DNA of 64,000 nt from Patescibacteria group bacterium (GCA_038064495.1 JBBTSZ010000002.1:16717-80716); one strand, 5' to 3'; positions 14,874-33,908 are shown, numbered from the stretch's first letter. Notes: generated from the sequence alone by a model not told the origin. Numbers and translations: made by a program.

Positions 14874-16073
14874 TTGATTACAGACGACACTCCAGAGTTC
14901 CCCTTCTTCCTTATATTGTCTTTCTATAAAACTTTCGCTTCGGTGCTTTGCCGATTGAATCGAAATGCATATCTCGCAAGCACCCTTACCACCCTTGTGG
15001 GAGCTCTCTCGCTAGCCTCATCGCTAGCGTTTCCTATTACAACCAACGCCTATTGGTTGCCTTGGACTATATCCTTTGCCGGAAATCCAGGGGGTGAACC
15101 ACCTATCATTCACGATAGCAGCATTCCCCTCCTTCAGGCAGCAGTGAACTCGGACCCAAATCCAGAAAAGGGTGGGAGTGATATTCAACTCACCGAGGGC
15201 TCGGCGCTCATGGCCAACTCAGGCCCAGAAGGCACCCTTGCCGACATTGATATGACCTCATCTGCCGGACAAATTACCACCTACGTGGTACGTCCGGGCG
15301 ACACCATTTCCAACATCGCGAGGAATTTTGGTGTCTCCGCAAACACCATTTTGTGGGCTAACAACCTCACAACGAAGAGCAAGGTAACGCCAGGCACGAC
15401 TCTCGTTATTCTTCCGGTCTCCGGTCTTCAACACAAAGTAACAAAGGGCGAAACCCTTGCTGGTATTGCGAAGAAATTTAAAGCAGACGCAGGCGACGTT
15501 GCTTCCTATAACGGCCTCTCTGTCGGAGACGGCCTTACCGTTGGTGACATTCTCATAATTCCTGGAGGCGAACTCTCCGTTGCTTCAAGTAAAACGGCAA
15601 CGAGCGGTAAGACCAAAACCAACATTAAACAAGGTGGTGGGCTCGTCAGTATTTTGAAGAATCCCTACCGTGGTGGAAGTGGTGCTGAAATAGATGGTTA
15701 CTACACGAACCCCGTACCGGGCGGACTCCTCACCCAAGGCATCCATGGCTGGAACGGTGTTGATCTCGGTGCGCCTGCAGGTACACCGGTGTACGCAGCG
15801 GCAGGCGGAACGGTTATCGTCTCACGCGTCGGCGGATGGAACGGTGGTTACGGTAACTACATTGTTATCGATCATGGCAATGGAACCCAGACACTCTACT
15901 CCCATCTTTCAAGTGATAATGTTTCGGTAGGACAAACGGTTTCTCGTGCCGCAGCTATTGGTGCCGTAGGACACACCGGTGAAGCGACCGGAAACCATCT
16001 CCACTTTGAGGTTCGTGGTGCGCGGAATCCATTTGCGGGATGTACGGCCATGACCCACTGCTCTCCGAAGTAA
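14874..16073 (+). CDS. LysM-domain M23 family metallopeptidase (cell-wall endopeptidase)
   Basis: Two LysM-like repeats (YVVRPGDTISNIARNFG..., HKVTKGETLAGIAKKF...) and M23 motifs HxxxD/HLHFE; signal-like segment; start may be an in-frame TTG at 14955. Confidence 0.85.
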   Translation: MITDDTPEFPFFLILSFYKTFASVLCRLNRNAYLASTLTTLVGALSLASSLAFPITTNAYWLPWTISFAGNPGGEPPIIHDSSIPLLQAAVNSDPNPEKGGSDIQLTEGSALMANSGPEGTLADIDMTSSAGQITTYVVRPGDTISNIARNFGVSANTILWANNLTTKSKVTPGTTLVILPVSGLQHKVTKGETLAGIAKKFKADAGDVASYNGLSVGDGLTVGDILIIPGGELSVASSKTATSGKTKTNIKQGGGLVSILKNPYRGGSGAEIDGYYTNPVPGGLLTQGIHGWNGVDLGAPAGTPVYAAAGGTVIVSRVGGWNGGYGNYIVIDHGNGTQTLYSHLSSDNVSVGQTVSRAAAIGAVGHTGEATGNHLHFEVRGARNPFAGCTAMTHCSPK

Positions 16074-16101
16074 AAATCCCCTCGCATGAGGGGATTTTTA
16101 T
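16072..16101. terminator. bidirectional intrinsic terminator between convergent genes
   Basis: AAAAATCCCCTCGCATGAGGGGATTTTTA. Confidence 0.6.
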
Positions 16102-17642
16102 TCAAACCCAAACAACCCACGTGGCCGATACTGCAACGCTTCAAGAATATGAGATGGCTCAACCTTCTCGCTACCCGCGAGGTCCGCAATTGTGCGGGCG
16201 ACCCGCATCACTCGGTGATACGCACGCGGAGAAAGCTGTAATTTTGTTGCCGCAGATAGAAGCGTACTCCGGGCTCCGTCCGTAAATGCTCCAACTTTGT
16301 CTAATTCTTTTGCTGAAAGCAATGCGTTGCTCATGGAGTCACTTCCATGACGCTTTCGCGCAAGCTTTCGTGCGGAAAGCACCCGCTTACGTACGGTAAC
16401 GGAGGATTCTCCTTCAGTTAAGCTCGCCAAATCTTCATGTGCTACGTGTGGCACCTCAACCCACAAATCAAGACGGTCAGCGATAGGTCGTGAAATCTTT
16501 CGTGCTTGCTTGCGGGCAGCCCTCACCGCAACGTCACTATCAGCTGAAAGCGTGTCTGCAGGATTCATCGCCGCAACGAGCATACTGTCTGCCGGAAAGG
16601 TGATGGTTGCACGTGCGCGCGACACGGTGACCACCTTGTCTTCCAGTGGCTGACGCAGTGCCTCAAGGGTGCGCGCATCAAATTCCGGAAACTCATCGAG
16701 AAATAAAACCCCTTTGTGTGCGAGGGTTACTTCACCGGCACGTGGATACGCTCCCCCACCCACCATCGCCGTATGGGAAATCGTGTGATGCGGCGAACGA
16801 AACGGCGGATGGCGCACGGGCCCATCTGAAAGGGTGCCTGCTGTTGAATGGATAGCAGTAACCTCAAGCACCTCGTCCTCGGTTAAGGGTGGCAAGATAC
16901 CGGAAAGTGCACGCGCAAGCATCGTCTTTCCGGTTCCAGGTGGTCCATACAACACGAGGTTATGCCGTCCGGCTGCTGCTATTTCAAGCGCACGCTTCGC
17001 ACTCTCCTGCCCTTTTATCTCAGCAAGGTTCAGTACAATCGGTGCCTCTTCAGTTACCACAGTACGCTCTTTTTCTTCCAAAAGCTTATCGCCTTTCAAA
17101 TGGGCAACGAGCGCGCTAAGGGTCTCTGGCGCGTACACGCGAATGCCCTGTGCAAGAAGTGCTTCGTGTACATTTCCAGGCGGTACAAAGACACTCGTAT
17201 AACCGGCACCTTTCGCTGCAACCACTTGAGGTAATACACCGCGCACCGTGCGTAGCTTTCCATCAAGAGAGAGTTCTCCACAAAACAAAACGGGTTCTTT
17301 CGGAATAGATAGTTCCCCGGCAGCGGCAAGGTAGCAAAGCGCGAGCGCGACATCATAGTGCGAACCCTCTTTTTTCAAGTCCGCAGGAGAAAGCGAGAGT
17401 ACAATACGCCGGTTCTCTGCTTTCGGAGATTTAAATCCACTGTGACGAATCGCAGCTGCAATACGGTCCCGAGCTTCTTCAACAGCTTTATCTGCAAGAC
17501 CGACTATGGAAAAGGAGTGAAGACCCCGCGTAAGGTCAGCCTCTATCGTTACGAGCTCCGCCTTCGCGCCAACAGGCTGGGCCGCGTACAAGGAACCATA
17601 CCCATGGGTTTCAATCTTGCGAGCGGTGGGAGAAGCGGCCAC
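16098..17642 (-). CDS. comM: YifB/ComM family Mg-chelatase-like AAA+ ATPase
   Basis: Walker [11 protein letters not shown], ChlI-type motifs, N-terminal Lon-like domain. Confidence 0.85.
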
Positions 17643-17665
17643 GGCTCAATTGTACACCGGGACGG

Positions 17666-18016
17666 TTACAGGTGTGCCTTACACGTTGTGGCAGCAGGGT
17701 CTGCGTTAAGGCGCTCCCCTTCAATCTTTTCACCACAAACACTACACGTTCCGTAGGTCCCTTCTTCAATACGTACAAGCGCAGCGAGTACGTTGTTGTA
17801 GCGAATCTCCAGATCCTTCAGAATTGCGGTATTTTCTTCAAATCCTTCAATCAAGTCGGCCGCATCATTTGGGTCAGCCTCCTTCCCGGTTTCGCTTGGC
17901 ACTGCTTCCCAGTCAGTTGGGTTAGAGGGATTTCGTCTGCCAATACTCGCAAGCTCTGTTTCCAGTCTAGTCTTCTCTTCGGTCAGCACGGTTTTGAAAT
18001 GTGACGTGTCGTTCAT
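17666..18016 (-). CDS. DksA/TraR-family C4-type zinc-finger protein
   Basis: C-terminal CSVCGEKIEGERLNADPAATTCKAH. Confidence 0.65.
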   Translation of the reverse strand: MNDTSHFKTVLTEEKTRLETELASIGRRNPSNPTDWEAVPSETGKEADPNDAADLIEGFEENTAILKDLEIRYNNVLAALVRIEEGTYGTCSVCGEKIEGERLNADPAATTCKAHL

Positions 18017-18050
18017 GAGGGCTACTGTAGCATTCCTAGAAACAAAAATC

Positions 18051-19418
18051 CTACTGTTGCTTTGTGGCAGACAGGCGGTTTATGAGTTCAGCGAATGCAG
18101 ATTCGTCTCGCGCAACGATAAGGGTGGATTTATCACGATATCCGTACAAGAAAATGGTGCGTCCCTGACTATCCTTGAGTGCTCGTACATCATGGTTGCT
18201 TGCGACTTCGTCTACGAACTGTGGAGGGCGAATAATCTGCACGGGTGCGGGAATAGTTTGTACGGTCGTTACCAGTTTTCCTTTTACAAAAGTTGTTGAG
18301 GTAGCGTAGGTAGGAAGCAGAGCCGCAGGAGGGTCATACGCTGGATAGAGTTGAGCGAGTTCTGTCTCCATCAGCCCCTCCCACGTGAGCATGCCGGCAA
18401 AGGTTCGTTCATAGGAAAGCACACGAAGGATGAAGAAAGGCCTGGTCTCAGCTCCTGCATGCACAATACCGACAGTACTCTCTGGAGCGATGTTACGAAG
18501 AAGGATGTCGGGTGCCGCAAGCTGGAGCGCACCAAAGAGTCTTCCTCCAGGAAGTGCAATATCCATAACTGGGTTACCTGCGCTTGTGGATGCCTGACTC
18601 AGGTAAAGTACTCGCACTTGTCCCACGCTAAGTGGCTGGCGAGCAGATTCATTCAAGGCTGCGATAAGCGTATCCCCCTCTCCTTTCACGGGTTGGCGGT
18701 CATCAGCAAAGACAAGCGATGAGACCACCGGACCAGCAAGCGGTACGCTAGCGTGGCTACGTACATAGGTGTAGGCGGCATAGGCTCCCCCACCGGCAAG
18801 CAGAATAAGCACAAAACTAAAAGCGACAAGGAGCGCATTCTTATGCTGTTTCACCGCTTGCGCGGGTTGTGTAGCAAGTTTTCCCGCATCTCCTTCAGCA
18901 GCTAGTACAGAGAAGGTAGAAGCTTGTTTAGTATCAATACGGTCTGAGAAATCAGAACTATAGGTATGTATCGGCGAGACGTTTTCGAGTGATACCGGAG
19001 TGGGAGCTGGCGCGGGTGGGACGAACTCTTGCGGAGCAACAGGAACCGGGACCGGTGGAGGTGGTGGTAAGTTAGGAAGCGGTGCTGGAGGCGGCGCAGG
19101 CTGCGGAACAACAGGCGGAGCAGGAACTGGTTCAGGAGTCACGGGAAGTGCACTGTTCGGGATAGAAGCAGCTAGTGGCGTGGGGGTGGGCATGGTCCCT
19201 GGCAAGAAGTCACCCTCTTGTACCGGATCATACTTCGCACGCGCGCGAAGCCGCTCAAGTACCTCGTCCCGTTCCACAGGCGCCGGTCCTCCTGCAATCG
19301 GCGTGCCAGGAATTACCGGAGCTTTTCCAGAAAGCGCCGCAACGTCCTTCGCGTAGGTACGAATATATGACTGGGTCGAATCATCGGCCATAGTATTCCT
19401 TAAAGTATAACCGCTCAC
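18051..19418 (-). CDS. bitopic membrane protein with proline-rich N-terminal region
   Basis: ORF 455 aa; PxP-rich stretch then single TM (LLVAFSFVLILLAGGGAYAAYTYV) then ~240-aa domain. Confidence 0.5.
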   Translation of the reverse strand: MSGYTLRNTMADDSTQSYIRTYAKDVAALSGKAPVIPGTPIAGGPAPVERDEVLERLRARAKYDPVQEGDFLPGTMPTPTPLAASIPNSALPVTPEPVPAPPVVPQPAPPPAPLPNLPPPPPVPVPVAPQEFVPPAPAPTPVSLENVSPIHTYSSDFSDRIDTKQASTFSVLAAEGDAGKLATQPAQAVKQHKNALLVAFSFVLILLAGGGAYAAYTYVRSHASVPLAGPVVSSLVFADDRQPVKGEGDTLIAALNESARQPLSVGQVRVLYLSQASTSAGNPVMDIALPGGRLFGALQLAAPDILLRNIAPESTVGIVHAGAETRPFFILRVLSYERTFAGMLTWEGLMETELAQLYPAYDPPAALLPTYATSTTFVKGKLVTTVQTIPAPVQIIRPPQFVDEVASNHDVRALKDSQGRTIFLYGYRDKSTLIVARDESAFAELINRLSATKQQ

Positions 19419-19430
19419 TGCCGAGTAAAA

Positions 19431-19466
19431 GAAAAAACGCTACGCAAAACTGCGTAGCGTTTTTTC
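19431..19466. terminator. bidirectional intrinsic terminator
   Basis: AAAAAACGCTACGCAAAACTGCGTAGCGTTTTTT (perfect 11-bp stem, A-tract/T-tract). Confidence 0.7.
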
Positions 19467-19474
19467 AAACAGTC

Positions 19475-19990
19475 CTACCCGCGATAGCCGATAAGAAATT
19501 TCTTGGGTTCATCACACATGTCGGTGAACGCATGAGCAGCCTCCTTCAGTTTTGCTGAAGAGGACTTTCCAAACGAAATGACCTCCACCTGACACCCTTC
19601 GTTCATATCTAAGTACTCAATAAGCGGAACAAAGTCGCCGTCGCCGGTTGCAAGAATAATGGTATCGAGCTTCGGCGCGAGCTTCACTGCGTCAATCGCG
19701 AGGCCGACGTCCCAGTCGGCTTTTTTTGCACCGTCAGAAAAGACCTGGAGGCCTTTTACTTTGGTTTCGATGCCGATTTTCGTGAGCGCTTCAAAGAAGG
19801 CACTCTCTTCCCCACTGTCGGTTGAGATAACGTAGGCAATAGAACGAACGAGTACGCGGTCACCGACTGCTTCCTCGAGCACCTTCTGGAAATTAACGCG
19901 TGACTTATAGAGATGCTTTGCACTGTGATAGAGATTCTGTGTGTCTATGAAAACCCCAACGCGTTGCGCCGGATGCTTAATAACTGCCAT
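19475..19990 (-). CDS. NYN/LabA-like (PIN-fold) domain protein
   Basis: VGVFIDTQNLYHS... pattern typical of NYN domain. Confidence 0.7.
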   Translation of the reverse strand: MAVIKHPAQRVGVFIDTQNLYHSAKHLYKSRVNFQKVLEEAVGDRVLVRSIAYVISTDSGEESAFFEALTKIGIETKVKGLQVFSDGAKKADWDVGLAIDAVKLAPKLDTIILATGDGDFVPLIEYLDMNEGCQVEVISFGKSSSAKLKEAAHAFTDMCDEPKKFLIGYRG

Positions 19991-20187
19991 AAAAATAAAA
20001 AACTAATGTAATAAAATGGTAGCCCTTGCTACATGGTAGCACCTGCTTACAAAAACTTTAGAAACTAAGAGTTTTCAGAAAAGACTTAGATACAAGGCAC
20101 TGAAGAAATAAATCTAGAGGCGTACTTGAAGTACGACGGAAGATTTATTTTGAACAGCAACTAAGTAGATGAGCTTTCTTAGAAGCT

Positions 20188-20457
20188 CTACTTCTTAAGG
20201 CCGAGTTTCTTGATAAGTGCGTTATACCCGCGCTTATCATTCTTCTCCAAATAACGGAGATGAGCACGTCGGTCTGCAACCATCTGAAGAAGACCACGGC
20301 GACTATGAAAATCTTTCTGGTTTTTCTTAAGATGCTTGGCTAGTTCATCAATTTTACGTGACAAAATACCAACCTGGACCTCAGGGGATCCAGTATCTGA
20401 CTCGTGGCGCGCTGCATCCTTGATAACAGCGGTCTTTACTCGTTTTGTAAGCATTGG
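20188..20457 (-). CDS. rpsO: 30S ribosomal protein S15
   Basis: MLTKRVKTAVIKDAARHESDTGSPEVQVGILSRKIDELAKHL...; likely start at Met 12 of the ORF. Confidence 0.85.
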   Translation of the reverse strand, partial: PMLTKRVKTAVIKDAARHESDTGSPEVQVGILSRKIDELAKHLKKNQKDFHSRRGLLQMVADRRAHLRYLEKNDKRGYNALIKKLGLKK

Positions 20458-20571
20458 CAATACGTTACCACACCTTGATAAAAAGCGCAAGTGTTGCCTG
20501 GTCTACTCCCCCACCTGCCATTTACAAGTTGGTGAGCGTTTTGCGCACAATATCAGTGCTAAAATGAGACT

Positions 20572-21489
20572 ATGGATGCCGAAACGCTTAAGCGACAATT
20601 CCTTGAACACACAGAAATCGAGCGCGGACGTGCCGTAAAGACGATTCAAAACTACGACCACTACCTCACGGTGTTGTTTCGGGAAATGAAGATAGCCAGT
20701 GTTATTGATATTACTGAGGAGAAGATTCGCGAATTCCGCTTGTGGTTGAATCGACAACCCGGAACAGGGAGCGACACCATGAAGCGCCGCACGCAAAACT
20801 ACTATCTCATTGCACTACGTGCTTTTCTGAAATATCTCCGAAAACGAGGCATAGATGGCCTGAACCCTGAGCGTATTGAGCTTGCCAAAGTACCTGAACG
20901 CTCGCTTGACCTTATTACCGCGACCGAGCTTGAGCGCCTGATGGAAGCCCCAAAGAACGCTATGGAAAAGGAACAGAATCCTGAGAAGGCGCTTCGGTAT
21001 GCCCGCGATACAGCCATTTTAGAGCTCCTTTTCTCCACGGGACTTCGTGTTTCTGAGCTCTGTGCACTTAATACCGACATAGATTTATCTCGAGACGAAA
21101 TCTCGGTTCGCGGAAAAGGAGACAAAGTTCGGGTGGTATTCCTATCCCCTGCTTCAAAAGACGCAGTTCGTGCGTATCAGAAACTCCGCAAGGATATGGA
21201 GGAGGCCCTCTTTCTTGAGGGTAGACCTGATAAGCTCCATCGCATTACGCCCCGTGATATACAGCGCCACATTAAGACGTATGCGGCGCAGGCAGGCATC
21301 ACCAGCAAGGTTACGCCCCACACGCTTCGGCACGTGTTCGCCACTGACTTGCTCAGTAATGGAGCTGATATTCGCTCAGTCCAGGCACTTCTGGGCCATG
21401 CCTCCATCACGACTACCCAGATTTATACGCACGTGACCGATGTGCACCTCCGAGAGGTACACAAACGTTTCCACTCACGACAAAAATAA
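20572..21489 (+). CDS. tyrosine site-specific recombinase, XerC/XerD-like
   Basis: Catalytic motifs HTLRHVFAT and LLGHASITTTQIYTHV. Confidence 0.85.
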   Translation: MDAETLKRQFLEHTEIERGRAVKTIQNYDHYLTVLFREMKIASVIDITEEKIREFRLWLNRQPGTGSDTMKRRTQNYYLIALRAFLKYLRKRGIDGLNPERIELAKVPERSLDLITATELERLMEAPKNAMEKEQNPEKALRYARDTAILELLFSTGLRVSELCALNTDIDLSRDEISVRGKGDKVRVVFLSPASKDAVRAYQKLRKDMEEALFLEGRPDKLHRITPRDIQRHIKTYAAQAGITSKVTPHTLRHVFATDLLSNGADIRSVQALLGHASITTTQIYTHVTDVHLREVHKRFHSRQK

Positions 21490-21522
21490 CCGCCGATCCA
21501 AGGACCGGCGGTAGAGAACAAT

Positions 21523-21822
21523 CTATTTCTTTGATGATTTTGTTGCTTTCCTTCTCCATGTGGCTGAACCCGGTGCGAGTTCCTTTTGACAGTATTCAAT
21601 GACAAATTTCGGACAATCACGAACGTTCTTCAGGAATTCACCATGGAGAGCAGTCGCGGCTGCCGTAAAAACTGCAAGAGAACTCATGCCGAACTCGCTT
21701 TGAAAACTGTCAAACAGAGCGTTTATCTCAGATGCCCGCCTTTTCTGGCTCCGGACAAGTCGTTTAGGAGGTTCTATTCCGAATACCTCTCGATATTGTC
21801 GTTTCGTCATTTTTCTTGCCAT
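21523..21822 (-). CDS. small basic hypothetical protein
   Basis: ORF only; convergent with recombinase; low confidence it is expressed. Confidence 0.3.
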   Translation of the reverse strand: MARKMTKRQYREVFGIEPPKRLVRSQKRRASEINALFDSFQSEFGMSSLAVFTAAATALHGEFLKNVRDCPKFVIEYCQKELAPGSATWRRKATKSSKK

Positions 21823-21899
21823 TTTTAATCTCCCGGCAACTCGCCGCATACTACATCTTCTTATATTCGTGTCTAGGCACCGTCTGTTAGAATGCGCTC

Positions 21900-22694
21900 A
21901 TGCGTATTATGTCGTGGAATGTGAACGGTATTCGTGCCGCCCATAATAAAGGCAACTTCATGCCATTCATCAGGAAGTACAAGCCGGATATATTGTGTCT
22001 TCAAGAAACAAAAGCAGAGCAAGACCAATCCCCTCTTGACCTGCCTGACTACGAAGAATTCTGGAGTTCCTCTAAAAATAAAAAAGGCTATAGCGGAACG
22101 GCAATTTTCACAAAGATGACCCCGAACGATGTGTTCTACGGCATGCCGGAGGATCTTGCTACGAAGTTCGGACTCGCAAACGACGGCTATGGGGACCCGA
22201 ATCAAGAAGGAAGAATTGTTGCCCTCGATATGTTTGATTTCTACGTTGTCTCCGTATATACGCCAAACGCGAAGGACGATTTATCCAGACTCACGCTTCG
22301 CCATGAGCACTGGGACCCTGCATTTCTTGCGTACATGAAGCGGCTTGAAGAGGAAAAACCCGTTATTTTCTGCGGCGACTTGAATGTAGCGCATACCGAA
22401 GACGACCTCGCCCGCCCAAAAGAAAACAAAGGATTAAAGGGATTTACTGATGAAGAACGCGAAGGAATTGATAACATCACGAATGCTGGTTTTGTTGATA
22501 CTTTTCGGCTGTTTAAAAAAGGTAACGGCTTCTATACCTGGTGGAGTCATTGGGGTGGAGCACGAGAAAGAAATGTTGGCTGGCGGATTGACTATATCTT
22601 TGTATCAAAGAAATATGCAAAACATGTGAAGACCGCGGAGATATTTCCAGAAGCCCTCGGCTCTGACCACTGCCCCACCTCCATAACTCTTTAA
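21900..22694 (+). CDS. xth: exodeoxyribonuclease III (AP endonuclease)
   Basis: MRIMSWNVNGIRAA...CLQETK...SDHCP. Confidence 0.9.
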   Translation: MRIMSWNVNGIRAAHNKGNFMPFIRKYKPDILCLQETKAEQDQSPLDLPDYEEFWSSSKNKKGYSGTAIFTKMTPNDVFYGMPEDLATKFGLANDGYGDPNQEGRIVALDMFDFYVVSVYTPNAKDDLSRLTLRHEHWDPAFLAYMKRLEEEKPVIFCGDLNVAHTEDDLARPKENKGLKGFTDEEREGIDNITNAGFVDTFRLFKKGNGFYTWWSHWGGARERNVGWRIDYIFVSKKYAKHVKTAEIFPEALGSDHCPTSITL

Positions 22695-22700
22695 GGACAT

Positions 22701-22733
22701 TGTTATACACAGTATGTCCTTTACATTGTCCTA
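22701..22733 (+). terminator. putative terminator hairpin after xth
   Basis: GGACATTGTTATACACAGTATGTCC followed by TTTACATT. Confidence 0.4.
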
Positions 22734-22744
22734 TAAGATACTAT

Positions 22745-22990
22745 GCTATCTCTTAGCGGGGGACAGTGTGCATACCGAGAGGCAGTCACACCGCTCCCGG
22801 ACTTGAATGATCTTTGCGAGCTCTTTATATCAGGCGTATAGCGTGTAGGTAGGTCGTCCAACGTAATCGGGGCGTATCCCCTACTCATTCACTGGGTCCA
22901 ATCTACCGTTCCACGTGAAAGCGCAAACCCTTTGATACCGATCCGATTTCACTCCTGAGTGTCACCCAATAAGCCCCAGCTCCTTTTAGA
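22745..22990 (+). ncRNA. candidate structured ncRNA in 390-nt gap between convergent xth and cca (partial resemblance to tmRNA PK1 and 3' acceptor strand; unconfirmed)
   Basis: GTGTGCATACCGAGAGGCAG resembles tmRNA GGUGCAUGCCGAGGGGCGG (E. coli) / GCCGAGAGGCG (B. subtilis); AAGCCCCAGCTCC-TTTT near 22970-22987 resembles tmRNA 3' CCAGCUCC; but no recognisable GGGG..UUCGAC 5' tRNA-like half or GGTTCGA T-loop. Confidence 0.25.
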
Positions 22991-23085
22991 CACTCAACCT
23001 GGATCGGTAGTCAAAAAAGAGGCCAGAAATAAGGACCATCCCTTGATGATCTTTATCTCTGGCCTCTTTCTATTTCACATAAAAC

Positions 23086-24549
23086 CTAGGATACGTTGTG
23101 TTTACTGAGTATTTCCTTGATTTCTTGCTCCTCTTCTTGCTCCTTCCTCTTTTTTCCTGAATCACCAAGTTCTTTCAACTCCTCATCTCCCAGTTTTAAT
23201 AGTTCCAGAACTCGATTTCCTAAGTAATCCTTAGTGTTGCTTTTAGGATTCTCAAGTACATCCTCTAGGAGTGTATGCAGGATATAGCCTATCTTTGGAC
23301 CTGGTTCCACGTGAAAGGTCCCCATAAGGTCATTTCCGTCTAGTTTGAGCATTCCCACTGATATAGGGTCTCGTAGTGCCTGGTCTACCATTGCCTTGTA
23401 CTTTCTGAATCTGAATGGCTGCTCCTTCGGTCGACCCGTACCAATTCGGTCACAAATCCTAAGATTGAGCAAATCTTCTATATTTTCATCACCAACGTTC
23501 TGAATCATGCGGCGAACGGCCGAAAGGGTGATTTGGTCAGGATCTGAAAAAAACATGTGCCAACGGACCAATTTACTCACCTTTTCAATAGTTTCACGTG
23601 AAAATTTAAGGTCTTCTAGTGCTTTTCGGGTTACACGTGAACCCACAACCTCATGGCCGTGAAAGGTCCAATCGTTCTTTTCGTCAGACCAGCGTCTTGT
23701 TTCCGGCTTAGATACATCATGGAAGAGGGCGGCGAGACGTATATCAAAAGGCCAGTCTTTGTCCGCTGCGTGCTGAAGCGAGCGCATAAGGTGGCCAAAA
23801 ACGTCGTAACTATGGGCTTGATTTTGATCTATCCCGATACCGCGCACCAGGTCAGCAGATATATATTTCAGAATATCCAGCTGTTGTGCCAGTACGAGGG
23901 CCATCATGGGGTTCTTTGACTCCAGGATACGCACAAGCTCATCGCGAATCCTTTCACGTGAAATGTGCGAGAGATTCGGACCCTTCTCCAGAATCGCTGC
24001 TGCCGTATCCGTATCAAGCGCGAAGTTCAATTCCGCGACAAGTCGTACTGCACGCATAACGCGTAGAGCATCTTCTTCAAAACGCTCCGTAGCAATGCCC
24101 ACGGTACGCAGTACTTTGGCCGAAATGTCCTTTTGTCCTTGATACGGGTCAACAATATGTCCTTTATCTTCATCAAGGGCGATAGCGTTTATGGTGAAGT
24201 CGCGGCGTGCAAGGTCACCCTCAAGACTGGTACCAAACTCAACAGCATCCGGACGACGCTTATCTGAGTATCCCGTTTCGGTACGATACGGTGTGACCTC
24301 TATAATTGAGAGGGTAGGGTCTTCGCTCTCTGTCTTCACGCCAACCGTACCAAAATCATTTTCGTAAAAAGAATCGGGGAATATTCGTTGAATATCTTCA
24401 GGCAATGCATTTGTCGTTATATCCCAGTCTTTAGGGGCTCGTTTGAGGAGAAGATCACGAACGCAACCACCCACTAAATAGGCCTCGAACCCTTCCTTAC
24501 GGAGACCATCTGCTACAGTCTTCACTTCAACCGGAACGTCCATCTTCAT
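23086..24549 (-). CDS. cca: CCA-adding tRNA nucleotidyltransferase / poly(A) polymerase family with HD domain
   Basis: GGCVRDLLL...DxD nucleotidyltransferase head and HD motif LFHDVSK. Confidence 0.8.
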   Translation of the reverse strand: MKMDVPVEVKTVADGLRKEGFEAYLVGGCVRDLLLKRAPKDWDITTNALPEDIQRIFPDSFYENDFGTVGVKTESEDPTLSIIEVTPYRTETGYSDKRRPDAVEFGTSLEGDLARRDFTINAIALDEDKGHIVDPYQGQKDISAKVLRTVGIATERFEEDALRVMRAVRLVAELNFALDTDTAAAILEKGPNLSHISRERIRDELVRILESKNPMMALVLAQQLDILKYISADLVRGIGIDQNQAHSYDVFGHLMRSLQHAADKDWPFDIRLAALFHDVSKPETRRWSDEKNDWTFHGHEVVGSRVTRKALEDLKFSRETIEKVSKLVRWHMFFSDPDQITLSAVRRMIQNVGDENIEDLLNLRICDRIGTGRPKEQPFRFRKYKAMVDQALRDPISVGMLKLDGNDLMGTFHVEPGPKIGYILHTLLEDVLENPKSNTKDYLGNRVLELLKLGDEELKELGDSGKKRKEQEEEQEIKEILSKHNVS

Positions 24550-24608
24550 GCTGAGAATACTATCATAATAAACAAGATATATGGACGTAATGATGGTATG
24601 CTAGTAAC

Positions 24609-25292
24609 ATGAATTCTAAGGTTCGAGAAAAGGAACTCGCTATCGCCTTGAGAAGGAAAGGCCTTACGTACAGAGAAATTCTCGAGCGAGTACCTGTTGC
24701 AAAGAGCTCAATCTCGCTTTGGCTTAAAGACTTTCCATTGACAACAAAAGAGAAGGAAATACTTAAGAAACGGAAAAATACGGACATGACAAGGTGGAGA
24801 GCCATGGCGGGAGCCGCGCTTAGTCAGAGAAGAGTTGAGAGAGACAAAGCACTTTTCCTCGTTGCTCGCGAAGAGTTCCAGACGGCAATTAGAGAGCCTT
24901 TATTTCAGGTTGGTATAGCCTTGTATTGGGCGGAGGGAGCAAAGAGAGCTAGTACGTTTAGTTTCATTAATTCTGATGTAGATATGACAATTCTTATGCT
25001 TGACTGGGTAAGAAAATATCTAGTTCTCGCAGACGAAAACCAAATACGAATGAGGGTCTTCACACACAAGGCATTCGAGCATGAGCACCATGAGGTATGG
25101 TGGTCGAAGCAATGCGGTATTCCACTCGATAGGTTTGGAAAGACTATCTTTAAATCACAAAACGGACTTATAGTTAAGAAAAGACCGAATTATAAGGGCT
25201 GCGTTCGAATAGAACTTGGCAAAGTAGCTCATATACGGAAAATGGCCTACTGGCAACAGATGCTCATTGAATACTACAAGAAACAAAGGTAA
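24609..25292 (+). CDS. HTH-domain protein, possible LAGLIDADG-type homing-endonuclease-like fold
   Basis: N-terminal HTH (GLTYREILERVPVAKSSISLWLKDF); motif GIALYWAEGAK resembles LAGLIDADG block; adjacent to tRNA cluster. Confidence 0.4.
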   Translation: MNSKVREKELAIALRRKGLTYREILERVPVAKSSISLWLKDFPLTTKEKEILKKRKNTDMTRWRAMAGAALSQRRVERDKALFLVAREEFQTAIREPLFQVGIALYWAEGAKRASTFSFINSDVDMTILMLDWVRKYLVLADENQIRMRVFTHKAFEHEHHEVWWSKQCGIPLDRFGKTIFKSQNGLIVKKRPNYKGCVRIELGKVAHIRKMAYWQQMLIEYYKKQR

Positions 25293-25304
25293 TGTGTGCT
25301 AACT

Positions 25305-25378
25305 GCACCCGTAGCTCAGCGGATTAGAGCATCTCGCTTCGGACGAGAGGGTCGGGGGTTCGAGTCCCTCCGGGTGCA
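25305..25378 (+). tRNA. tRNA-Arg (anticodon UCG)
   Basis: Cloverleaf: acceptor GCACCCG/CGGGUGC, D-arm GCUC-AGCGGAUUA-GAGC, anticodon loop CUUCGGA, T-arm GGGGG-UUCGAGU-CCCUC. Confidence 0.9.
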
Positions 25379-25419
25379 CTAGAAAAAGGGCGAGTCCCTG
25401 TGATATAGTTCAGCGCGAA

Positions 25420-25490
25420 GCGGATATGGTTTAGTGGTAGAACGCGTCCTTGCCAAGGACGAGGCGGGAGTCCGATTCTCCCTATCCGCA
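25420..25490 (+). tRNA. tRNA-Gly (anticodon GCC)
   Basis: Acceptor GCGGAUA/UAUCCGC, anticodon arm CGUCC-UUGCCAA-GGACG, T-arm GGGAG-UCCGAUU-CUCCC. Confidence 0.9.
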
Positions 25491-25499
25491 CTGTCGAGC

Positions 25500-25524
25500 A
25501 AAAGCACCCATGAGGGTGCTTTTG
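25500..25524 (+). terminator. hairpin + T-tract after tRNA-Gly
   Basis: GCACCCATGAGGGTGCTTTT. Confidence 0.5.
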
Positions 25525-25526
25525 CG

Positions 25527-25700
25527 TTAAGGACAGTGCGGATAGAGTACGACGTCCAACGTCGTACGTGGAGAATCGGAAGGCGGAACGGGGTACCCAT
25601 CCAACAGGATGGGTCGCGAGCCGGGGTCGCGGAATCTGCGAGTGACGACGAGCTCGTATCTGTGGCCGATAGTGTACTCACGGTCTCCCTGACATTTCTC
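25527..25700 (+). ncRNA. candidate structured RNA (~175 nt) closed by long-range helix GUGCGG...CCGCAC with >=4 internal hairpins; identity unknown
   Basis: Hairpins GUACGACG-UCCAA-CGUCGUAC, ACCCAUCC-AACA-GGAUGGGU, CGCGA-GCCGGGG-UCGCG, palindromic ACGAGCUCGU; terminal pairing GTGCGG(25527)/CCGCAC(25691); region otherwise only covered by mutually overlapping spurious ORFs. Confidence 0.3.
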
Positions 25701-25828
25701 CCGCACACCTAAAAATCCAAAAATATAGGTTTTTCAAGCCCACAACAGACATTTTCCTTTACTAAAAACAGGGGATAAAGCTGTTAACATGTGGATAAAG
25801 GACAATGGACAAAAAGAGCGATTTTGTG

Positions 25829-25860
25829 ACCTGTTCGTAAACGAATAAGTAAATACAATG
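25829..25860 (+). promoter_or_regulatory. putative sigma70-like promoter upstream of yraN-like gene
   Basis: TTGACC ...15-16 nt... TATACT. Confidence 0.3.
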
Positions 25861-25868
25861 TATTTCTC

Positions 25869-26297
25869 TTGACCTCCACTAACGTCCTCTATACTTTAGC
25901 TATGGACATCTCTGGATTCAGTCGAAAAGAGATCGGAGCACTCGGAGAAAAGGTTGCCTGTGAGTATTTAAGGCGCAATGGTATGAAAATAGTGGCAAAA
26001 AATGTTGCTCGTAAAACGGGCGAGATTGATGTAATAGGAAAAGAGCACGACACGCTGCATTTCGTTGAAGTTAAAACAATTGTCTGTGAGGTGTTTCCGT
26101 CTGAAAGAAGTACTGACGACAGCTACGACCCATCAGCGAATTTACATGAGGCCAAAATACGGCGTGTGGCGCGCACGAGTGAATGGTACGTTGCATCTAT
26201 TGATTGGGAGGGGGAATGGCAGGTGGACGGGGTCTTGGTATGGCTCCGAAAGGCCGATGGGAGGGCGCTTGTTCGGTATCTGCCGCAAATCCTATAA
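25869..26297 (+). CDS. YraN/UPF0102 family endonuclease-like protein
   Basis: GE(K)xAxxYLxxxG...EIDVIGKE...HFVEVKT pattern; true start may be Met at 25902. Confidence 0.7.
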   Translation: MTSTNVLYTLAMDISGFSRKEIGALGEKVACEYLRRNGMKIVAKNVARKTGEIDVIGKEHDTLHFVEVKTIVCEVFPSERSTDDSYDPSANLHEAKIRRVARTSEWYVASIDWEGEWQVDGVLVWLRKADGRALVRYLPQIL

Positions 26298-26377
26298 ACC
26301 TGGTAGGATGCGTATAAGCGAGGTCGCTGTGCCCCTCGGGGCATGAGGCCTCGTTTGTTCGGTGCTTGCTGAGGGAA

Positions 26378-26528
26378 TCCGGTCATGAAGTAGCTCATTT
26401 GTTTTCGAATACTGTGTCGGGGTGTCGTATACCGGTAGTACGCTTGCTTTGGGAGCAAGATGACGGAGTTCGATTCTCCGCACCCCGACAGAGTATTTGA
26501 ATGAGTTCATGACCGGATCGACTCTTCG
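26378..26528 (+). repeat. imperfect inverted repeat (~35-40 nt arms) bracketing tRNA-Pro, plus a second 9-bp hairpin downstream
   Basis: 5' arm CCGGTCATGAAGTAGCTCATTTGTTTTCGAATACTGTG; 3' arm CAGAGTATTTGAATGAGTTCATGACCGG (reverse-complementary with indels); then CGACTCTTCGGGGAAGAGTCG. Confidence 0.55.
26418..26488 (+). tRNA. tRNA-Pro (anticodon UGG)
   Basis: Acceptor CGGGGUG/CACCCCG, anticodon arm CUUGC-UUUGGGA-GCAAG, T-arm CGGAG-UUCGAUU-CUCCG. Confidence 0.85.
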
Positions 26529-26585
26529 GGGAAGAGTCGGGTGACGAGTTCGATATTCAACCGCAAAGGCACTAATTGAAAGTAT

Positions 26586-27782
26586 CTATTTAAACCCAAT
26601 CGCCTTTGCGAGGAAGTTTCCGAGTTCTTGTATTTTCGTGCTGTACGAGTCGGTAGCATTCACCAGGCTCCCAGAGTCGTAGTACGTATCAAAGTCTCCA
26701 CCCGTGGCAGCTTTGAAGCTTCTACGCATATGCGTCGGCGTGATGACTCGTAGTTCACGCGTACTTTCGTCACCCGACAATTCGCTTGTGGTGATAAGTC
26801 CGATAAGCGCTCCTGAAGTGCTTACCGCTGCACCACCAGACGAACCTTCCTGAGCTGCCTTACCTCCATATATCGCAAGCACATCTGAACTCGTGGTAGT
26901 GAATGTGTAGACGTCTTTAATCTTTCCATACACGAGTGTTGGGGCGAGATGCGACGTTACTTCACTTGTCGTGAGGTACTGCGCACCATAGGAACCGAGT
27001 GCAACCTTTTGTCCGACGATGCCAGGCGATGTAGAAACATGAATAGCAGGATAGCTTCCTGGAAGGGGAGCACCGGTCGCACTACTTGTTATCGCAAGGA
27101 GCGCAAAATCATTTTCTCCCGTTCCGGTAGGTTGCGAACTAATGAGCGTGGTTGAGTTACTGCGCACCCAGGGTTCAGAGATATACAGCAGCTTACCTTT
27201 GTAGGCATTTTTTGCTGGGTTACCGGTACGAATAGCGCAGGAGATAACATTCTTGCCGAGAGTCTGTTCAAGCAGCACTGCCTGAGCAACGTGCGCAACA
27301 GTGAGTACGATTCCCCTGGAATCAATAATCACCCCGGTACCGGACACTCCGCGAAGTTGACTTGTGTGCGAGGTGCAAAGAATATTCACGACTGAAAGAG
27401 AAACAGTATCAAGAAGCGCGTCACCGGTTGAGCTCGCGGGGACGGGTGTTGTGGTTGCTACTGGAGCAGACCCGTTAGGAGTTGGAGGCTTTTGCAGGGG
27501 AGTCGGTTTGGTTGGTGTTGCTACCTCTGGCTTCGCTTTCGTGACTATCGCCTCAAGCCCAGGAACGAGAGACTCTACGGTTGTGGTCGGTACCGTAAAC
27601 ACAGGTGTTGTGGTCGGTACAAACGAACGGCTCACCCCTCCGACAGGGGTGAGCTTACCTTGGTTCGTGAGGGTTGAAACCGTTACTGCATTTGCTCCGG
27701 TATTGAAGTAGGAAATGAAGAGGGCAAGAGCAAGGGCTCCAAACGCAGCCAAAACATGCTCAACGTGCTGTCGCATTCCCAC
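26586..27782 (-). CDS. secreted/membrane-anchored trypsin-like (S1 family) serine protease
   Basis: His (LTVAHVA), Asp (NDFALLAI), Ser (GSSGGAAVS) catalytic-motif regions; N-terminal hydrophobic anchor. Confidence 0.75.
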   Translation of the reverse strand: MGMRQHVEHVLAAFGALALALFISYFNTGANAVTVSTLTNQGKLTPVGGVSRSFVPTTTPVFTVPTTTVESLVPGLEAIVTKAKPEVATPTKPTPLQKPPTPNGSAPVATTTPVPASSTGDALLDTVSLSVVNILCTSHTSQLRGVSGTGVIIDSRGIVLTVAHVAQAVLLEQTLGKNVISCAIRTGNPAKNAYKGKLLYISEPWVRSNSTTLISSQPTGTGENDFALLAITSSATGAPLPGSYPAIHVSTSPGIVGQKVALGSYGAQYLTTSEVTSHLAPTLVYGKIKDVYTFTTTSSDVLAIYGGKAAQEGSSGGAAVSTSGALIGLITTSELSGDESTRELRVITPTHMRRSFKAATGGDFDTYYDSGSLVNATDSYSTKIQELGNFLAKAIGFK

Positions 27783-27862
27783 ATGCTACCGCGGGCGCTC
27801 TAAAAAGCCATTGGCTCGGGACTGGGCAGTAGCTGCCCTGATATGGTATTCTCCCTCCTAAC

Positions 27863-27933
27863 GCGGGATTAGTTTAATGGTAGAACATCAGTTTTCCAAA
27901 CTGAGAGCAGGAGTTCGATTCTCCTATCCCGCA
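27863..27933 (+). tRNA. tRNA-Gly (anticodon UCC)
   Basis: Acceptor GCGGGAU/AUCCCGC, anticodon arm UCAGU-UUUCCAA-ACUGA, T-arm AGGAG-UUCGAUU-CUCCU. Confidence 0.9.
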
Positions 27934-28203
27934 CATGTCAGTCTGACGGACATTTTGCCCTCTTGCGAAAAACACCCTTTTGTTGAGCCGTCCTCTGCGA
28001 TCTCGTCCTTCAGGCCTCTCTTATTGAGACGTATGGAGAATAGGACTTTTTTTCTTGTCCAATCATCAAGAGGTTATTCGAATTTGTAGATTCTAACCCT
28101 ACCAACCCACAAATATTCACCGATGGAACTAATACCTCAGTGACAGGGCCAACACAATAAATCAAGGATTTGAAAAAAATCACTTTGTGTTGTCATTTGA
28201 GTT

Positions 28204-28797
28204 TTGGCTATGGGTTTAACTTTAGACACATTGGTGTATCATTTCCACAGGATTCATGATTTTGGGGAGGATCTTATGCAAGCACCGATTATTGCTGCCA
28301 TTGTTGGTGGATTGTTCGCCCTATTTGTAACTTTATTTGGCCATGCATATCTTACCTTTCTGCAGCTAAAGAAGGAGAAACACCTATCTTTGACGCTAGA
28401 AAGAAGACGTATATACAGTGAGCTGTGTGCAAGTCTAATGATTTCTTCATTCGACATGATTACAACTGACGAGGAGGGACCTGAGAACACAAGATTTCAG
28501 CGTCACGCGTGGGTTGCAGCAAATACAAAACAATTAAGTGATCTACAAGCAAAGATCAACGCTGCTTCGTTCTATGCAAGTGATTGTCTTAGAAAGGAGT
28601 TTGCTTTTTTGTCTGAGTTCCTGCACGTACTCATTATTGGAGGATCATATTCACGTGGCACGAAGGGAGACACAAGTGACGAGTTCCTGGAGAAACACTT
28701 GTATATTGAACATGACAAAACGATGGAGGATATATTTCAGGAGCCTTGGCAGCGTGCATTAAAATTAATGAAAAAAGAAGTTGGCCTCATTGATTGA
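28204..28797 (+). CDS. hypothetical single-pass membrane protein
   Basis: ORF 197 aa with one hydrophobic helix (IIAAIVGGLFALFVTLFGHAYL); AT-richer context. Confidence 0.4.
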   Translation: MAMGLTLDTLVYHFHRIHDFGEDLMQAPIIAAIVGGLFALFVTLFGHAYLTFLQLKKEKHLSLTLERRRIYSELCASLMISSFDMITTDEEGPENTRFQRHAWVAANTKQLSDLQAKINAASFYASDCLRKEFAFLSEFLHVLIIGGSYSRGTKGDTSDEFLEKHLYIEHDKTMEDIFQEPWQRALKLMKKEVGLID

Positions 28798-28806
28798 GTA
28801 ATATTA

Positions 28807-28831
28807 GGGGGCACCTTCGGGTGCCTCTTTC
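28807..28831 (+). terminator. intrinsic terminator
   Basis: GGGGCACCTTCGGGTGCCTCTTTCTT. Confidence 0.55.
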
Positions 28832-28840
28832 TTATGTCGA

Positions 28841-28870
28841 GGGACTTAGGGACTACAGGTACGTAATTCA
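28841..28870 (+). repeat. 30-bp direct repeat, copy 1 (GGGACTTAGGGACTACAGGTACGTAATTCA)
   Basis: 27/30 identical to copy at 30445-30474; both intergenic. Confidence 0.6.
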
Positions 28871-28972
28871 AGTTTTTTGCTTTGGTTTACGCCCTTCCTT
28901 AGCTCCATTCTTATACTTGGTCTACGCAACGCTCACGATTGCTTTTTGTTCCCACAGGAGTATCGTTAAACC

Positions 28973-29614
28973 ATGAGAGCTCGTACTTCACTCCTAGTAA
29001 TAGCCAATGTTTTCTTCCTATTTCTTGCAGTCTTCTGTGCAGTTCCAACGGACGTTCAGGCGTATGTTTCGGTTAAAGGATATTACAAAGCCAACGGCAC
29101 TTATGTAGCGCCCTATGTTCGCAGTAATCCAAATGGTCTGAAATACGATAATTACGGGTATAAACCTAGCCAAGGACTATATAATTCAACATATGGAACA
29201 AAAGGTGCAGCATGGGACACTCCGACCTACGTAACTGATCCCAACTATTACCAAGGTAAAGCTCTCTATGAACAGAGCAAAACAGTAGTAGGAAGCTCTT
29301 ACTCAACATATTCGAAGATACCTGCAATTCACCCCGCAAGAAACGTGTCGTACGTGACAAGTGCCTGGGTATCGAACAACCCAAACACACCCTGCAACCA
29401 GGCAACACTGAGAGCAGCTGAACGTGCTGAATGCATCACGTACAGGGCGCTATTTAATTCATATAAGTGGAATGTCACAACAACTGAATTTGATAACATT
29501 CATTATCGATGGGATCCGGAATTAAATATGTCGTATATGTGTTCCGATGGATATTCGTTCCGCTATGACACTGCTACTGGGAAACCAAAAGAGCTGTGTT
29601 ATCCAGATTTATAG
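28973..29614 (+). CDS. small secreted Tyr/Asn-rich protein
   Basis: Signal peptide MRARTSLLVIANVFFLFLAVFCAVPTDVQA. Confidence 0.5.
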   Translation: MRARTSLLVIANVFFLFLAVFCAVPTDVQAYVSVKGYYKANGTYVAPYVRSNPNGLKYDNYGYKPSQGLYNSTYGTKGAAWDTPTYVTDPNYYQGKALYEQSKTVVGSSYSTYSKIPAIHPARNVSYVTSAWVSNNPNTPCNQATLRAAERAECITYRALFNSYKWNVTTTEFDNIHYRWDPELNMSYMCSDGYSFRYDTATGKPKELCYPDL

Positions 29615-29699
29615 TACTGACAAGGTCCTAAGAGCTACTTAGATAGTACTGTCTTCTAGGGATCTAGATTCAATAACGCTCATAATCTTCTCTATCACC

Positions 29700-30044
29700 T
29701 TAGTAGTCGGTAGATTCTTGTTCCTCGTATGAGTCTCGTTGATCTACATACTCCTGACAACCCTCTATGAACGAATTTGAGTTACCGTCGCAATCGCTGA
29801 CGTCATTCTCTTCAGCCCATTCGTATCCAGCGGAATGTCCAGTTCCGTCGTCATATGGGTTTTCCGGCTCAGGAGCGTAATTTTCATTGACGTACGAGTC
29901 TTCGTATACGCCGTAATGATCACCAGAGACACTACCTCCTGAGGAATCGTCAGAGAATAAGGAATATGTGCCCCAGACAACTAGGCTCCAAAATGCCACC
30001 CCGACTATTATTTCCCAAGCCCCTTCTCCTCGTAGAGGTCTCAT
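29700..30044 (-). CDS. small acidic protein with N-terminal TM helix
   Basis: ORF; likely start MRPLRGEG...; coupled 3 nt downstream of preceding minus-strand gene. Confidence 0.4.
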   Translation of the reverse strand: MRPLRGEGAWEIIVGVAFWSLVVWGTYSLFSDDSSGGSVSGDHYGVYEDSYVNENYAPEPENPYDDGTGHSAGYEWAEENDVSDCDGNSNSFIEGCQEYVDQRDSYEEQESTDY

Positions 30045-30046
30045 AT

Positions 30047-30385
30047 TTATTTGAATAGCCAACTAAAGACTGACGCCCAGCGATTTTGGGATAGCCCATT
30101 TGACATGTTAGCTGGCAAGACTTTCGTCACTGCCGGAACTCTTTGTGTTTGATGATACTCAGCGCACTTCACCATAGAGGAATACCTAACGGAGCTGTTT
30201 CTCCAGCCATCATTACAGATGGCGCTCCCATCAGAGTCTGGACCAGCTGAACAGCTGACCCCACCATGACCAGAGCAAGCCCCGCTCGTGGCTAGTGCTA
30301 AAAGTGGAGAGGTAAGAAAGAGAACTGCAAGTAGACCTGCGCGGCGGACTGTGGGGTATACGCTACTTTGGAGGTTCCTGGACAT
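30047..30385 (-). CDS. small secreted Cys-containing protein
   Basis: Start chosen at Met giving signal peptide MSRNLQSSVYPTVRRAGLLAVLFLTSPLLALA; the longer ORF to 30610 would run through the direct repeat. Confidence 0.4.
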   Translation of the reverse strand: MSRNLQSSVYPTVRRAGLLAVLFLTSPLLALATSGACSGHGGVSCSAGPDSDGSAICNDGWRNSSVRYSSMVKCAEYHQTQRVPAVTKVLPANMSNGLSQNRWASVFSWLFK

Positions 30386-30444
30386 ACCAAAAGCATATAC
30401 CTCAGGAGAGATTAAACAAATGAATCCCAGATGGGCGCTGAACA

Positions 30445-30474
30445 GGGACTTAGGGACTACAGGGACGTGATCCA
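30445..30474 (+). repeat. 30-bp direct repeat, copy 2 (GGGACTTAGGGACTACAGGGACGTGATCCA)
   Basis: See copy 1. Confidence 0.6.
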
Positions 30475-30798
30475 CTGCACATACACTCACCTTAATACCC
30501 AGAGTACTTCTTCCGCTTCGGCTTCTGCACTTCCTCCACCTCAGGCTCAAACATCTTCCGTATGCTCCTGAAGTCAGCCAGAATGACAGAGTAGCCTGGA
30601 CTGAACCCAATGTCTTGAATGTCCTTTACGAGACGTTCCACCTCGGATCTGGTATCTTTATCCTCATTAGAAAAAGTTCTAACGTCCTCTACGAACCTGC
30701 ACACTCTAGTGCTAGTTCAGGTGACCGAGGTGCCTAGCCCTTAACTGCTCGCTGCAGGTGTAAACTGAAGGCAGACATTACCAATAGCGACATTCGAT

Positions 30799-31311
30799 AT
30801 GGCAACGAAAAAACAAATCGGGACAGCAAAAAAGAATGTTCGCAAAGCGCAAGCGGCATGGAAAGGTATGACTAAACGCCAGCACGCGCTCGCACAGCCT
30901 GAAGGTCGCAATCGCAAAAAGCCGGGAACGACCGGCAAAGGCAAGTTTTATCATATCGAAATTCGTCCGAAGTCGGACTTTACCTCGTTTCGCACCCAGG
31001 ATGTCGGAAAGAAAGGCGGGCTTGAGCGCATCGCGGGCCGCCGATCAAGCGGAAGCTGGGCGACCGCTACGTGGCTCATTTCGAAGGATAAGGCGCACTT
31101 AAGCGCGAAGGGAAAGCTTGTCGTTACCGACAAGAAAGATAAGGCATCGCTCGCCAAGGCAATCCGAGGAAGGGTTGTACATGTGAAGGGCGACATCTTT
31201 ACTGCGCATCCGGCGAAGAATGTGCCGGAAGCATCTAAGCCGACGTCCGCGATGAGACGGGCACAGGCGGCGAATATCAAGAAGGCGCAAGCGGCGCGTA
31301 ATAAAAAATAA
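30799..31311 (+). CDS. lysine/arginine-rich basic protein, unknown function
   Basis: ORF 170 aa, highly basic termini. Confidence 0.45.
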   Translation: MATKKQIGTAKKNVRKAQAAWKGMTKRQHALAQPEGRNRKKPGTTGKGKFYHIEIRPKSDFTSFRTQDVGKKGGLERIAGRRSSGSWATATWLISKDKAHLSAKGKLVVTDKKDKASLAKAIRGRVVHVKGDIFTAHPAKNVPEASKPTSAMRRAQAANIKKAQAARNKK

Positions 31312-31312
31312 T

Positions 31313-31899: not shown

Positions 31900-31911
31900 G
31901 AGGAGACTGAA

Positions 31912-33905: not shown

Positions 33906-33908
33906 AGA

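Follow-up and report, generated by a model that had tools for sequence, protein, structure and literature searches.

The DNA that we analyzed (hereafter, the window) is a 64,000-nt stretch from a Patescibacteria group bacterium, in which the convergent genes xth (21900-22694, + strand, with an Exo_endo_phos domain) and cca (23086-24549, - strand, with a PolyA_pol head and RNA-binding and HD domains) are separated by a gap of 391 nt (22695-23085). The original prediction drew attention to this gap as unusually large and free of genes, and it is indeed the second largest of the window's 67 intergenic gaps, whose median size is 40 nt, and the largest among those that separate convergent gene pairs. 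(The largest gene-free gap of the window, at 53156-53958, has 803 nt, lies between divergent genes and gave no match in Rfam.) The hairpins that had been noticed at both ends of the gap are present as well, in the form of the repeat AAGGACAT/ATGTCCTT at its start and a longer hairpin (23019-23066) at its end. Two blocks inside the gap had been quoted as resembling segments of tmRNA. The first of these, GTGTGCATACCGAGAGGCAG, lies exactly at 22766-22785, as reported, while the second, AAGCCCCAGCTCCTTTT, occupies 22971-22987, its reported start having been off by one base.

With the cca protein as query, we collected 80 related loci (71-82% identity) from Parcubacteria, Paceibacterota, Kaiserbacteria and Patescibacteria MAGs; the analysis covered 64 kb of the source genome and 9-kb pieces of its relatives. 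According to blastn and iterated nhmmer searches, about 78 of the 80 loci have kept the nucleotide sequence of the gap at the same position, immediately downstream of cca, which is more than would be expected by chance, and the nhmmer conservation in these loci covers HMM positions 2-300. The conserved element is single-copy. In one subclade, the identity of xth falls to 44-47%, and the element is nonetheless kept. It also still abuts cca where xth is not in the locus or is displaced by 0.6-3 kb, inserts of this size being located between the element and xth in loci L034, L050, L068, L070, L071 and L072. A further search with the cca protein for distant lineages returned, among the matches listed, only relatives with at least 77% identity. 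Exact patterns specific to the predicted RNA recovered just 8-45% of its known members, and we roughly estimate that they would give hundreds to thousands of chance matches in metagenomes.

As the original prediction allowed for two possibilities, a tmRNA that is permuted or very divergent and a structured RNA of another kind, we looked for known RNAs. ARAGORN detected four tRNAs in the window and no tmRNA. Rfam 15 at gathering thresholds yielded solely the four tRNAs in the 64-kb window, and a search of the whole window at E<=0.5 gave no candidate for a tmRNA, RNase P RNA, 6S RNA or SRP RNA. At E<=10, neither the standard nor the permuted tmRNA models matched the gap; the only matches in the region 22600-23200 were those of miRNA-type models on the plain terminator hairpin, and 22750-23000 was empty. 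Rfam searches of 22 homologous loci (15 + 7) that included the tmRNA models gave no matches either. The absence of a tRNA-like 5' acceptor half and of a T-loop, which the original prediction had itself remarked on, was borne out by pattern searches: the T-loop pattern GTTCRANYC is absent from both strands of all 71 homologous gaps (the window and 70 others), and a GGRGCYG 5' partner for CAGCUCC was not found on the + strand. Moreover, no reading frame for a tag peptide is conserved among the homologues, the best case being shared by three near relatives at most.

A promoter scan of the gap predicts a sigma70-type promoter on the + strand (22720-22747), with the -35 box TTTACA (22720-22725), a 16-nt spacer and the -10 box TATGCT (22742-22747). 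The corresponding pattern GTCCTT[TG]AC-N15-19-TAnnnT was found in 66 of 71 homologous gaps, e.g., as TTGACT-16-TATAAT in locus L010, and conservation of the -10 box is highest at the canonical positions T1, A2 and T6. We infer that the transcript starts near 22755, about 7-9 nt 3' of the -10 box.

The inverted repeat at the start of the gap, with arms AAGGACAT (22693-22700) and ATGTCCTT (22714-22721), overlaps the xth stop codon. Both its arms and its loop are kept as sequence across loci, and it may be a terminator of xth or an operator. In its loop, 8 nt upstream of the -35 box, is a DnaA-box-like site, TTATACACA (22703-22711, + strand), which occurs at the same position in homologous gaps: it is perfect in 30 of 71 of them and has at most one mismatch in 62 of 71. 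The repeat, with the consensus TTATNCACA of this site in its loop, is followed by a second TGTCC repeat within the promoter spacer (22727-22731), which gives a composite motif (22693-22731). A similar sequence, TGTCCATTGTCCTTTATCCACA, is located near tRNA genes at 25790-25815 on the - strand, and the two sites may have an operator or promoter element in common.

Downstream of the promoter, the predicted RNA would fold into three separate hairpin domains. The first is a hairpin predicted by the minimum-free-energy fold at 22756-22800 (CGGGGG...CUCCCG, with an inner GUGUG/CACAC pairing). This hairpin, which holds the block at 22766-22785 that had been compared to the PK1 segment of tmRNA, differs among subclades and is missing in a whole subclade, which we call short-type (L036, L060, L077 and others). 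It is followed by a CU-rich tandem motif, AUGAUCUUUGCGAGCUCUUUAU (22807-22828), whose consensus is GUUCUUUG-nn-AGCUCUUUC and which is a conserved block in all loci. In predicted folds of the short-type RNAs, the first CU-rich copy can pair with a 5'-terminal AAAGGA.

The second domain is a long central hairpin (22833-22924) made up of four helices. P_a pairs GGCGU (22833-22837), or alternatively GCGU (22841-22844), with GCGC (22921-22924), and P_b0 pairs GCGUG (22841-22845) with CACGU (22912-22916). P_b is formed by GUCC (22856-22859) and GGGU (22894-22897), and P_c by GGGG (22869-22872) and CCCC (22878-22881), which enclose the conserved loop CGUAU (22873-22877). RNAalifold recovered P_a, P_b0 and P_c with compensatory changes in the clade to which the window belongs. 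In this clade, P_b and the flanking helices are not cleanly aligned; P_b and one adjacent helix can be recognized solely through inspection and per-clade folding, and the assignment of P_b in the window, made by analogy, is weaker. The sequence 3' of the central domain changes in both length and content between loci.

The third domain is a two-tier hairpin at 22934-23011 (+ strand). Its outer stem pairs approximately 22934-22944 with 23001-23011, and its inner stem pairs UGAGUGUC (22956-22963) with GACACUCA (22989-22996). The inner stem closes a 25-nt apical loop, ACCCAAUAAGCCCCAGCUCCUUUUA (22964-22988), for which the alignment columns give the consensus caCCA..anGCCCc-n-gCuCC-uuuUu. The motif GCCCC-N1-4-(G)CYCC is found in essentially all loci, and loop variants among the homologues include GCCCCAGCUCC, GCCCCUUCCCC and GCCCCAACCCC. 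It is this loop that contains the block that had been likened to a tmRNA acceptor strand.

For the 3' domain, plain MAFFT alignments analyzed with RNAalifold revealed no structure, the stems being out of register. (In a separate brute-force comparison of column pairs, based on an E-INS-i alignment, noise obscured any covariation.) In view of the stems' poor register, we seeded a covariance model (R1) with 17 sequences from a subclade in which they are in register, and then iterated the search. The R1 model detects the window's copy (22934-23011) with 37.2 bits; its matches at E<=0.0085 comprise 50 loci, without exception on the strand that was expected. (R1 also matches weakly at 31863-31932, a GC-rich hairpin in the 3' end of the ORF 31735-32058 that has sub-threshold Rfam matches to an rnk leader and a toxic small RNA, and is probably a plain hairpin.) The iterated model, R3, gives the window's copy 57.1 bits (E 5e-10) and has 64 matches, i.e., the window and 63 loci. 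For the central domain, model R2, which was derived from 13 short-type sequences, finds 33 loci; its match in the window covers 22807-22938, with 23.4 bits and E 3e-5.

It is important to consider that alignments fitted to covariance models bias covariation counts toward the modeled structure, and that controls in which the pairing partners are slid, which offer a fairer comparison, correct this bias only partly; with this reservation, 91.8% of cells are paired in the R1 alignment, as compared with 40-52% in slid controls, and 212 cells have changes in both partners, as compared with 26-47. In the R3 alignment, which has 62 distinct sequences, the corresponding values are 91.7% versus 38-51% for paired cells and 305 versus 50-74 for double-change cells, and there are compensatory changes at all 21 of 21 pairs. 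None of 500 shuffles of the 3' domain matches the observed pairing values. In the central domain, 91.3% of cells across the 33 loci are paired, as opposed to 24-56% in slid controls, with 70 double-change cells as opposed to 9-21. Additionally, G.U pairs exceed A.C pairs 2:1 in both structured domains, and this excess agrees with the direction of the promoter and the U-run in indicating an RNA transcribed from the + strand.

Beyond the 3' domain is the long terminator hairpin (23013-23076), in which GAGGCCAG (23019-23026) pairs with CUGGCCUC (23059-23066), flanked by an A-run and a U-run. Based on folding and on a terminator scan of the - strand, we predict that it can function as a bidirectional intrinsic terminator that serves both the small RNA and cca. 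The sequence of the hairpin (23019-23066) is not conserved between loci, and in short-type loci a U-run comes directly after the 3' domain. Considering the promoter, the nhmmer conservation and the covariance model matches together, we place the predicted transcription unit at 22755-23070 on the + strand, as far as the U-run that follows the terminator hairpin, both ends being estimates; its conserved core ends at approximately 23011-23014. The RNA would thus have a length of about 260-320 nt in the window and about 215 nt in the short-type subclade.

Some of the locus appears to be conserved for other purposes. The central hairpin contains a parS-like palindrome, GTTCCACGTGAAAG (22908-22921), whose core match TTCCACGTGAAA (22909-22920) resembles the parS consensus bound by ParB/Spo0J, TGTTNCACGTGAAACA. 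The pattern TTYCACGTGAAA has 6 matches in the 64-kb window, where 1.4 are expected, and 5 of these fall within 22909-23963: the one in the RNA gene and four in cca (23305-23316, 23592-23603, 23631-23642 and 23952-23963). Of the 80 related loci, 79 retain this cluster, and these 79 have the motif only in cca, at fixed codon positions, and in the gap, with 3-4 sites inside the cca ORF, 1-3 in the downstream gap and 4-kb flanks that are free of it. (In the extracted pieces of relatives L001-L080, the sites are at about 4587, 4947, 5234 and 5460-5800.) Some homologues have lost the copy inside the RNA and have another copy elsewhere in the gap, which implies that the block is probably conserved as DNA. 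Judging by these matches, the cluster looks like the chromosome's centromere region and is a candidate for it.

We also observed that nearly all genes at 536-20490 are on the - strand and nearly all at 37398-64000 are on the + strand, with the switch at about 20500-37400. Such a divergent pattern of gene orientation is typical of replication origin regions. A search of the 64-kb window for oriC revealed no dnaA gene and no cluster of DnaA boxes, and GC skew was uninformative.

Taken together, the fixed synteny, the promoter, the covariation in two domains, the terminator, the lack of a conserved ORF and the lack of a matching Rfam family lead us to conclude that the gap probably contains an independently transcribed, structured small non-coding RNA gene on the + strand. 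Two features that are used in general to recognize small-RNA genes are found here, namely a non-coding stretch placed between its own predicted promoter and a Rho-independent terminator, and a secondary structure with compensatory changes, seen here in model-fitted alignments. One caveat is that covariation in the outer 3' stem, which has A and U tracts, would also be expected of a simple bidirectional terminator. The predicted RNA is shared by a whole clade of ultra-small CPR bacteria (Parcubacteria/Paceibacteria and Kaiserbacteria-like organisms), next to cca in nearly all loci as detailed above. Neither Rfam 15 nor the searchable literature was found to contain a description of such an RNA, and it is therefore a new small-RNA family with respect to these sources. 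RNase P RNA, 6S RNA and SRP RNA were considered and rejected, given that there is no Rfam match and that their architectures are incompatible with the element. For example, 6S RNA (RF00013) forms one rod-like hairpin that has a large bubble at its center, in contrast to the three domains of the element.

A large part of bacterial diversity belongs to the CPR/Patescibacteria, about whose non-coding RNAs, to our knowledge, next to nothing is known. As the element is single-copy, is 215-320 nt in length, has two covarying domains and maintains its synteny even where xth is only 44% identical, an important role is more likely than a strain-specific one. It is a concrete and testable candidate for metatranscriptomic studies and for experiments in those few CPR co-cultures that can be cultivated. 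The parS-like cluster, the DnaA-box-like site and the apparently leaderless genes described below are independently useful for studying chromosome and translation biology in CPR bacteria.

As to the function of the RNA, we tentatively prefer a role as a trans-acting, base-pairing regulator, a mechanism that we regard as possible rather than probable. The exposed C/U-rich apical loop (CCA..GCCCC-N-GCUCC-UUUU) would pair with G/A-rich segments of target RNAs, and the second GCUCUUU copy might possibly pair with targets too. Because a DnaA-box-like site adjoins the promoter and a parS-like site is located inside the gene, expression of the RNA may be linked to replication and segregation. We prefer the base-pairing mechanism because the C/U-rich loop and the repeated GCUC(C)UUU resemble the seeds of small RNAs with C-rich loops, the pairing partners of which are purine-rich sites. 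RsaE/RoxS and other Rsa RNAs of Gram-positive bacteria, with their UCCC/CCCC motifs, share several features with the element: a stand-alone gene, a sigma70-type promoter, an intrinsic terminator, unpaired C-rich motifs in hairpin loops and a repeated CU-rich motif. However, there is no homology to this family (at E<=10, no Rfam model of any kind matched 22750-23000), and the element is 2-3 times longer and has an extra conserved central domain. Another difference is that their usual type of target is doubtful in this host, which is without Shine-Dalgarno enrichment.

Specifically, Shine-Dalgarno sequences are found upstream of 11% of the starts in the window, as compared with a background of 12% (63 start regions), and pairing of the RNA with ribosome-binding sites is therefore doubtful. 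A -10-like box, TAnnnT, ends 5-9 nt before the start in 30% of genes (e.g., xth, cca and the gene at 24609), compared with a background of 5%, which suggests that mRNAs encoded in the window are mostly leaderless. When we calculated duplex energies for 64 start regions, there were two outliers, one upstream of 5595-6686 and one at the rny start, with AGCUGGGGU, neither of which is significant after correction for multiple testing. A conserved complementary site in the neighborhood was not found.

Nearly as likely as base-pairing, and thus also no better than a possibility to be kept in mind, is that the same small RNA binds a protein, which it would sequester or with which it would form part of an RNP. 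Several distinct loop and internal-loop motifs are conserved on covarying helices (CGUAU, AACG/A-rich, GAAA-containing and C-rich motifs), as would suit protein recognition. Clade-wide synteny and a single copy, which are properties of housekeeping RNAs, also suit this explanation, as do the genome's paucity of Shine-Dalgarno sequences and the lack of a convincing mRNA target. On the other hand, the gene context points to no partner, as xth and cca are not known partners of small RNAs, and the RNA is unlike 6S, SRP, RNase P and Y RNAs.

It is also conceivable, albeit improbable, that the element is not an ordinary accessory regulator but a lineage-specific housekeeping RNA of Parcubacteria (an RNP component or a global regulator) whose gene is part of the centromere and whose promoter is controlled by DnaA. 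If such a housekeeping role is correct, replication and segregation would be coupled to RNA-level control in organisms whose translated mRNAs would be mostly leaderless and free of Shine-Dalgarno sequences.

We next consider explanations that do not involve a small-RNA gene. We judge it quite unlikely that the gap encodes no functional RNA and has been kept only as DNA, i.e., for centromere-like parS sites, a DnaA box or operator, and bidirectional terminators of xth and cca. The parS-like sites, the DnaA-box-like site and the promoter do explain part of the conservation at the DNA level. In particular, parS-like sites are restricted to cca and the gap in 79 loci, where the internal copy has decayed another is often seen elsewhere in the gap, and the DnaA-box-like site is conserved. 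The palindrome GTTCCACGTGAAAG matches the parS core and is one of the 4-6 sites of the conserved cluster that spans cca and the gap; however, this DNA-level feature, which overlaps the RNA gene, leaves the remainder of the element unexplained, and there are homologues that drop the site from the RNA yet retain the structure. Similarly, the outer 3' stem, between its A and U tracts, is in the style of a bidirectional terminator: in short-type loci this stem, and in the window the hairpin at 23019-23066, is GC-rich, has A/U tracts on its sides and could terminate both the small RNA and cca. In contrast, a bidirectional terminator needs no covarying inner stem, no 25-nt loop, no 90-nt upstream domain and no promoter. 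Compensatory changes are found in the inner 3' stem, P_a, P_b and P_c, which are not terminator helices; the unpaired CGUAU and the 25-nt C-rich loops are conserved; G.U pairs outnumber A.C pairs; and the conserved promoter is directed into the gap, where no gene comes after it. The DNA-level sites thus leave the covarying helices, the conserved loops and the promoter unexplained.

Even less probable is a small protein gene, or a cis-acting element in the 3' UTR of xth or cca. Short ORFs of 13-55 amino acids do occur in the gap, and where the CU-rich motif begins, an AUG follows AAGGA in some of the copies. However, the start codon at this position drifts between AUG, CUG, AAG, ACG and UAG, indels are not multiples of three, and the ORFs are not conserved, with weak peptide similarity in three near relatives only. 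As for a UTR element, the predicted RNA has its own promoter and persists where xth is displaced, and a strong predicted terminator on the - strand (the hairpin at 23019-23066 and its U-run) separates it from cca. A type I toxin on the - strand was likewise considered and rejected, along with a small conserved ORF and a cca or xth UTR.

Finally, a very divergent or circularly permuted tmRNA (ssrA) is the explanation to which we give almost no credence, and of the two alternatives in the original prediction it is the different structured RNA that stands, in view of the promoter, the covarying helices in two domains and the terminator. The attraction of a tmRNA had been that two short blocks resemble the E. 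coli tmRNA, in that GUGCAUACCGAGAGGCAG is similar to the PK1 region and CCAGCUCC to the 3' acceptor strand that includes CAGCUCC. In addition, the length is similar, the element adjoins cca, the gene for the CCA-adding enzyme, and a canonical ssrA is not seen within the 64-kb window. However, the element differs from tmRNA in having no T-loop, no acceptor stem that joins its ends, no conserved tag frame and no covariance model or ARAGORN match, and neither resembling block is what it seemed: the first is in a hairpin that varies by clade and is lost in a whole subclade, and the second is part of the variable apical loop of a strongly covarying hairpin. In relatives, the acceptor-like block reads CCCCUUCCCC, CCCCAACCCC and similar sequences, a variation that is incompatible with a G3.U70 alanine acceptor stem. 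A false tmRNA lead is thereby removed.

Regarding other contents of the window, a TrbL/VirB6-like protein is encoded at 6687-9374, within a block of large unannotated ORFs, and a T2SSE/T2SSF gene pair (the ATPase and platform of a type IV pilus or secretion system) is at 37398-40572. The window also encodes RNase Y, NusA, ClpP, UvrD and an NYN-domain protein.
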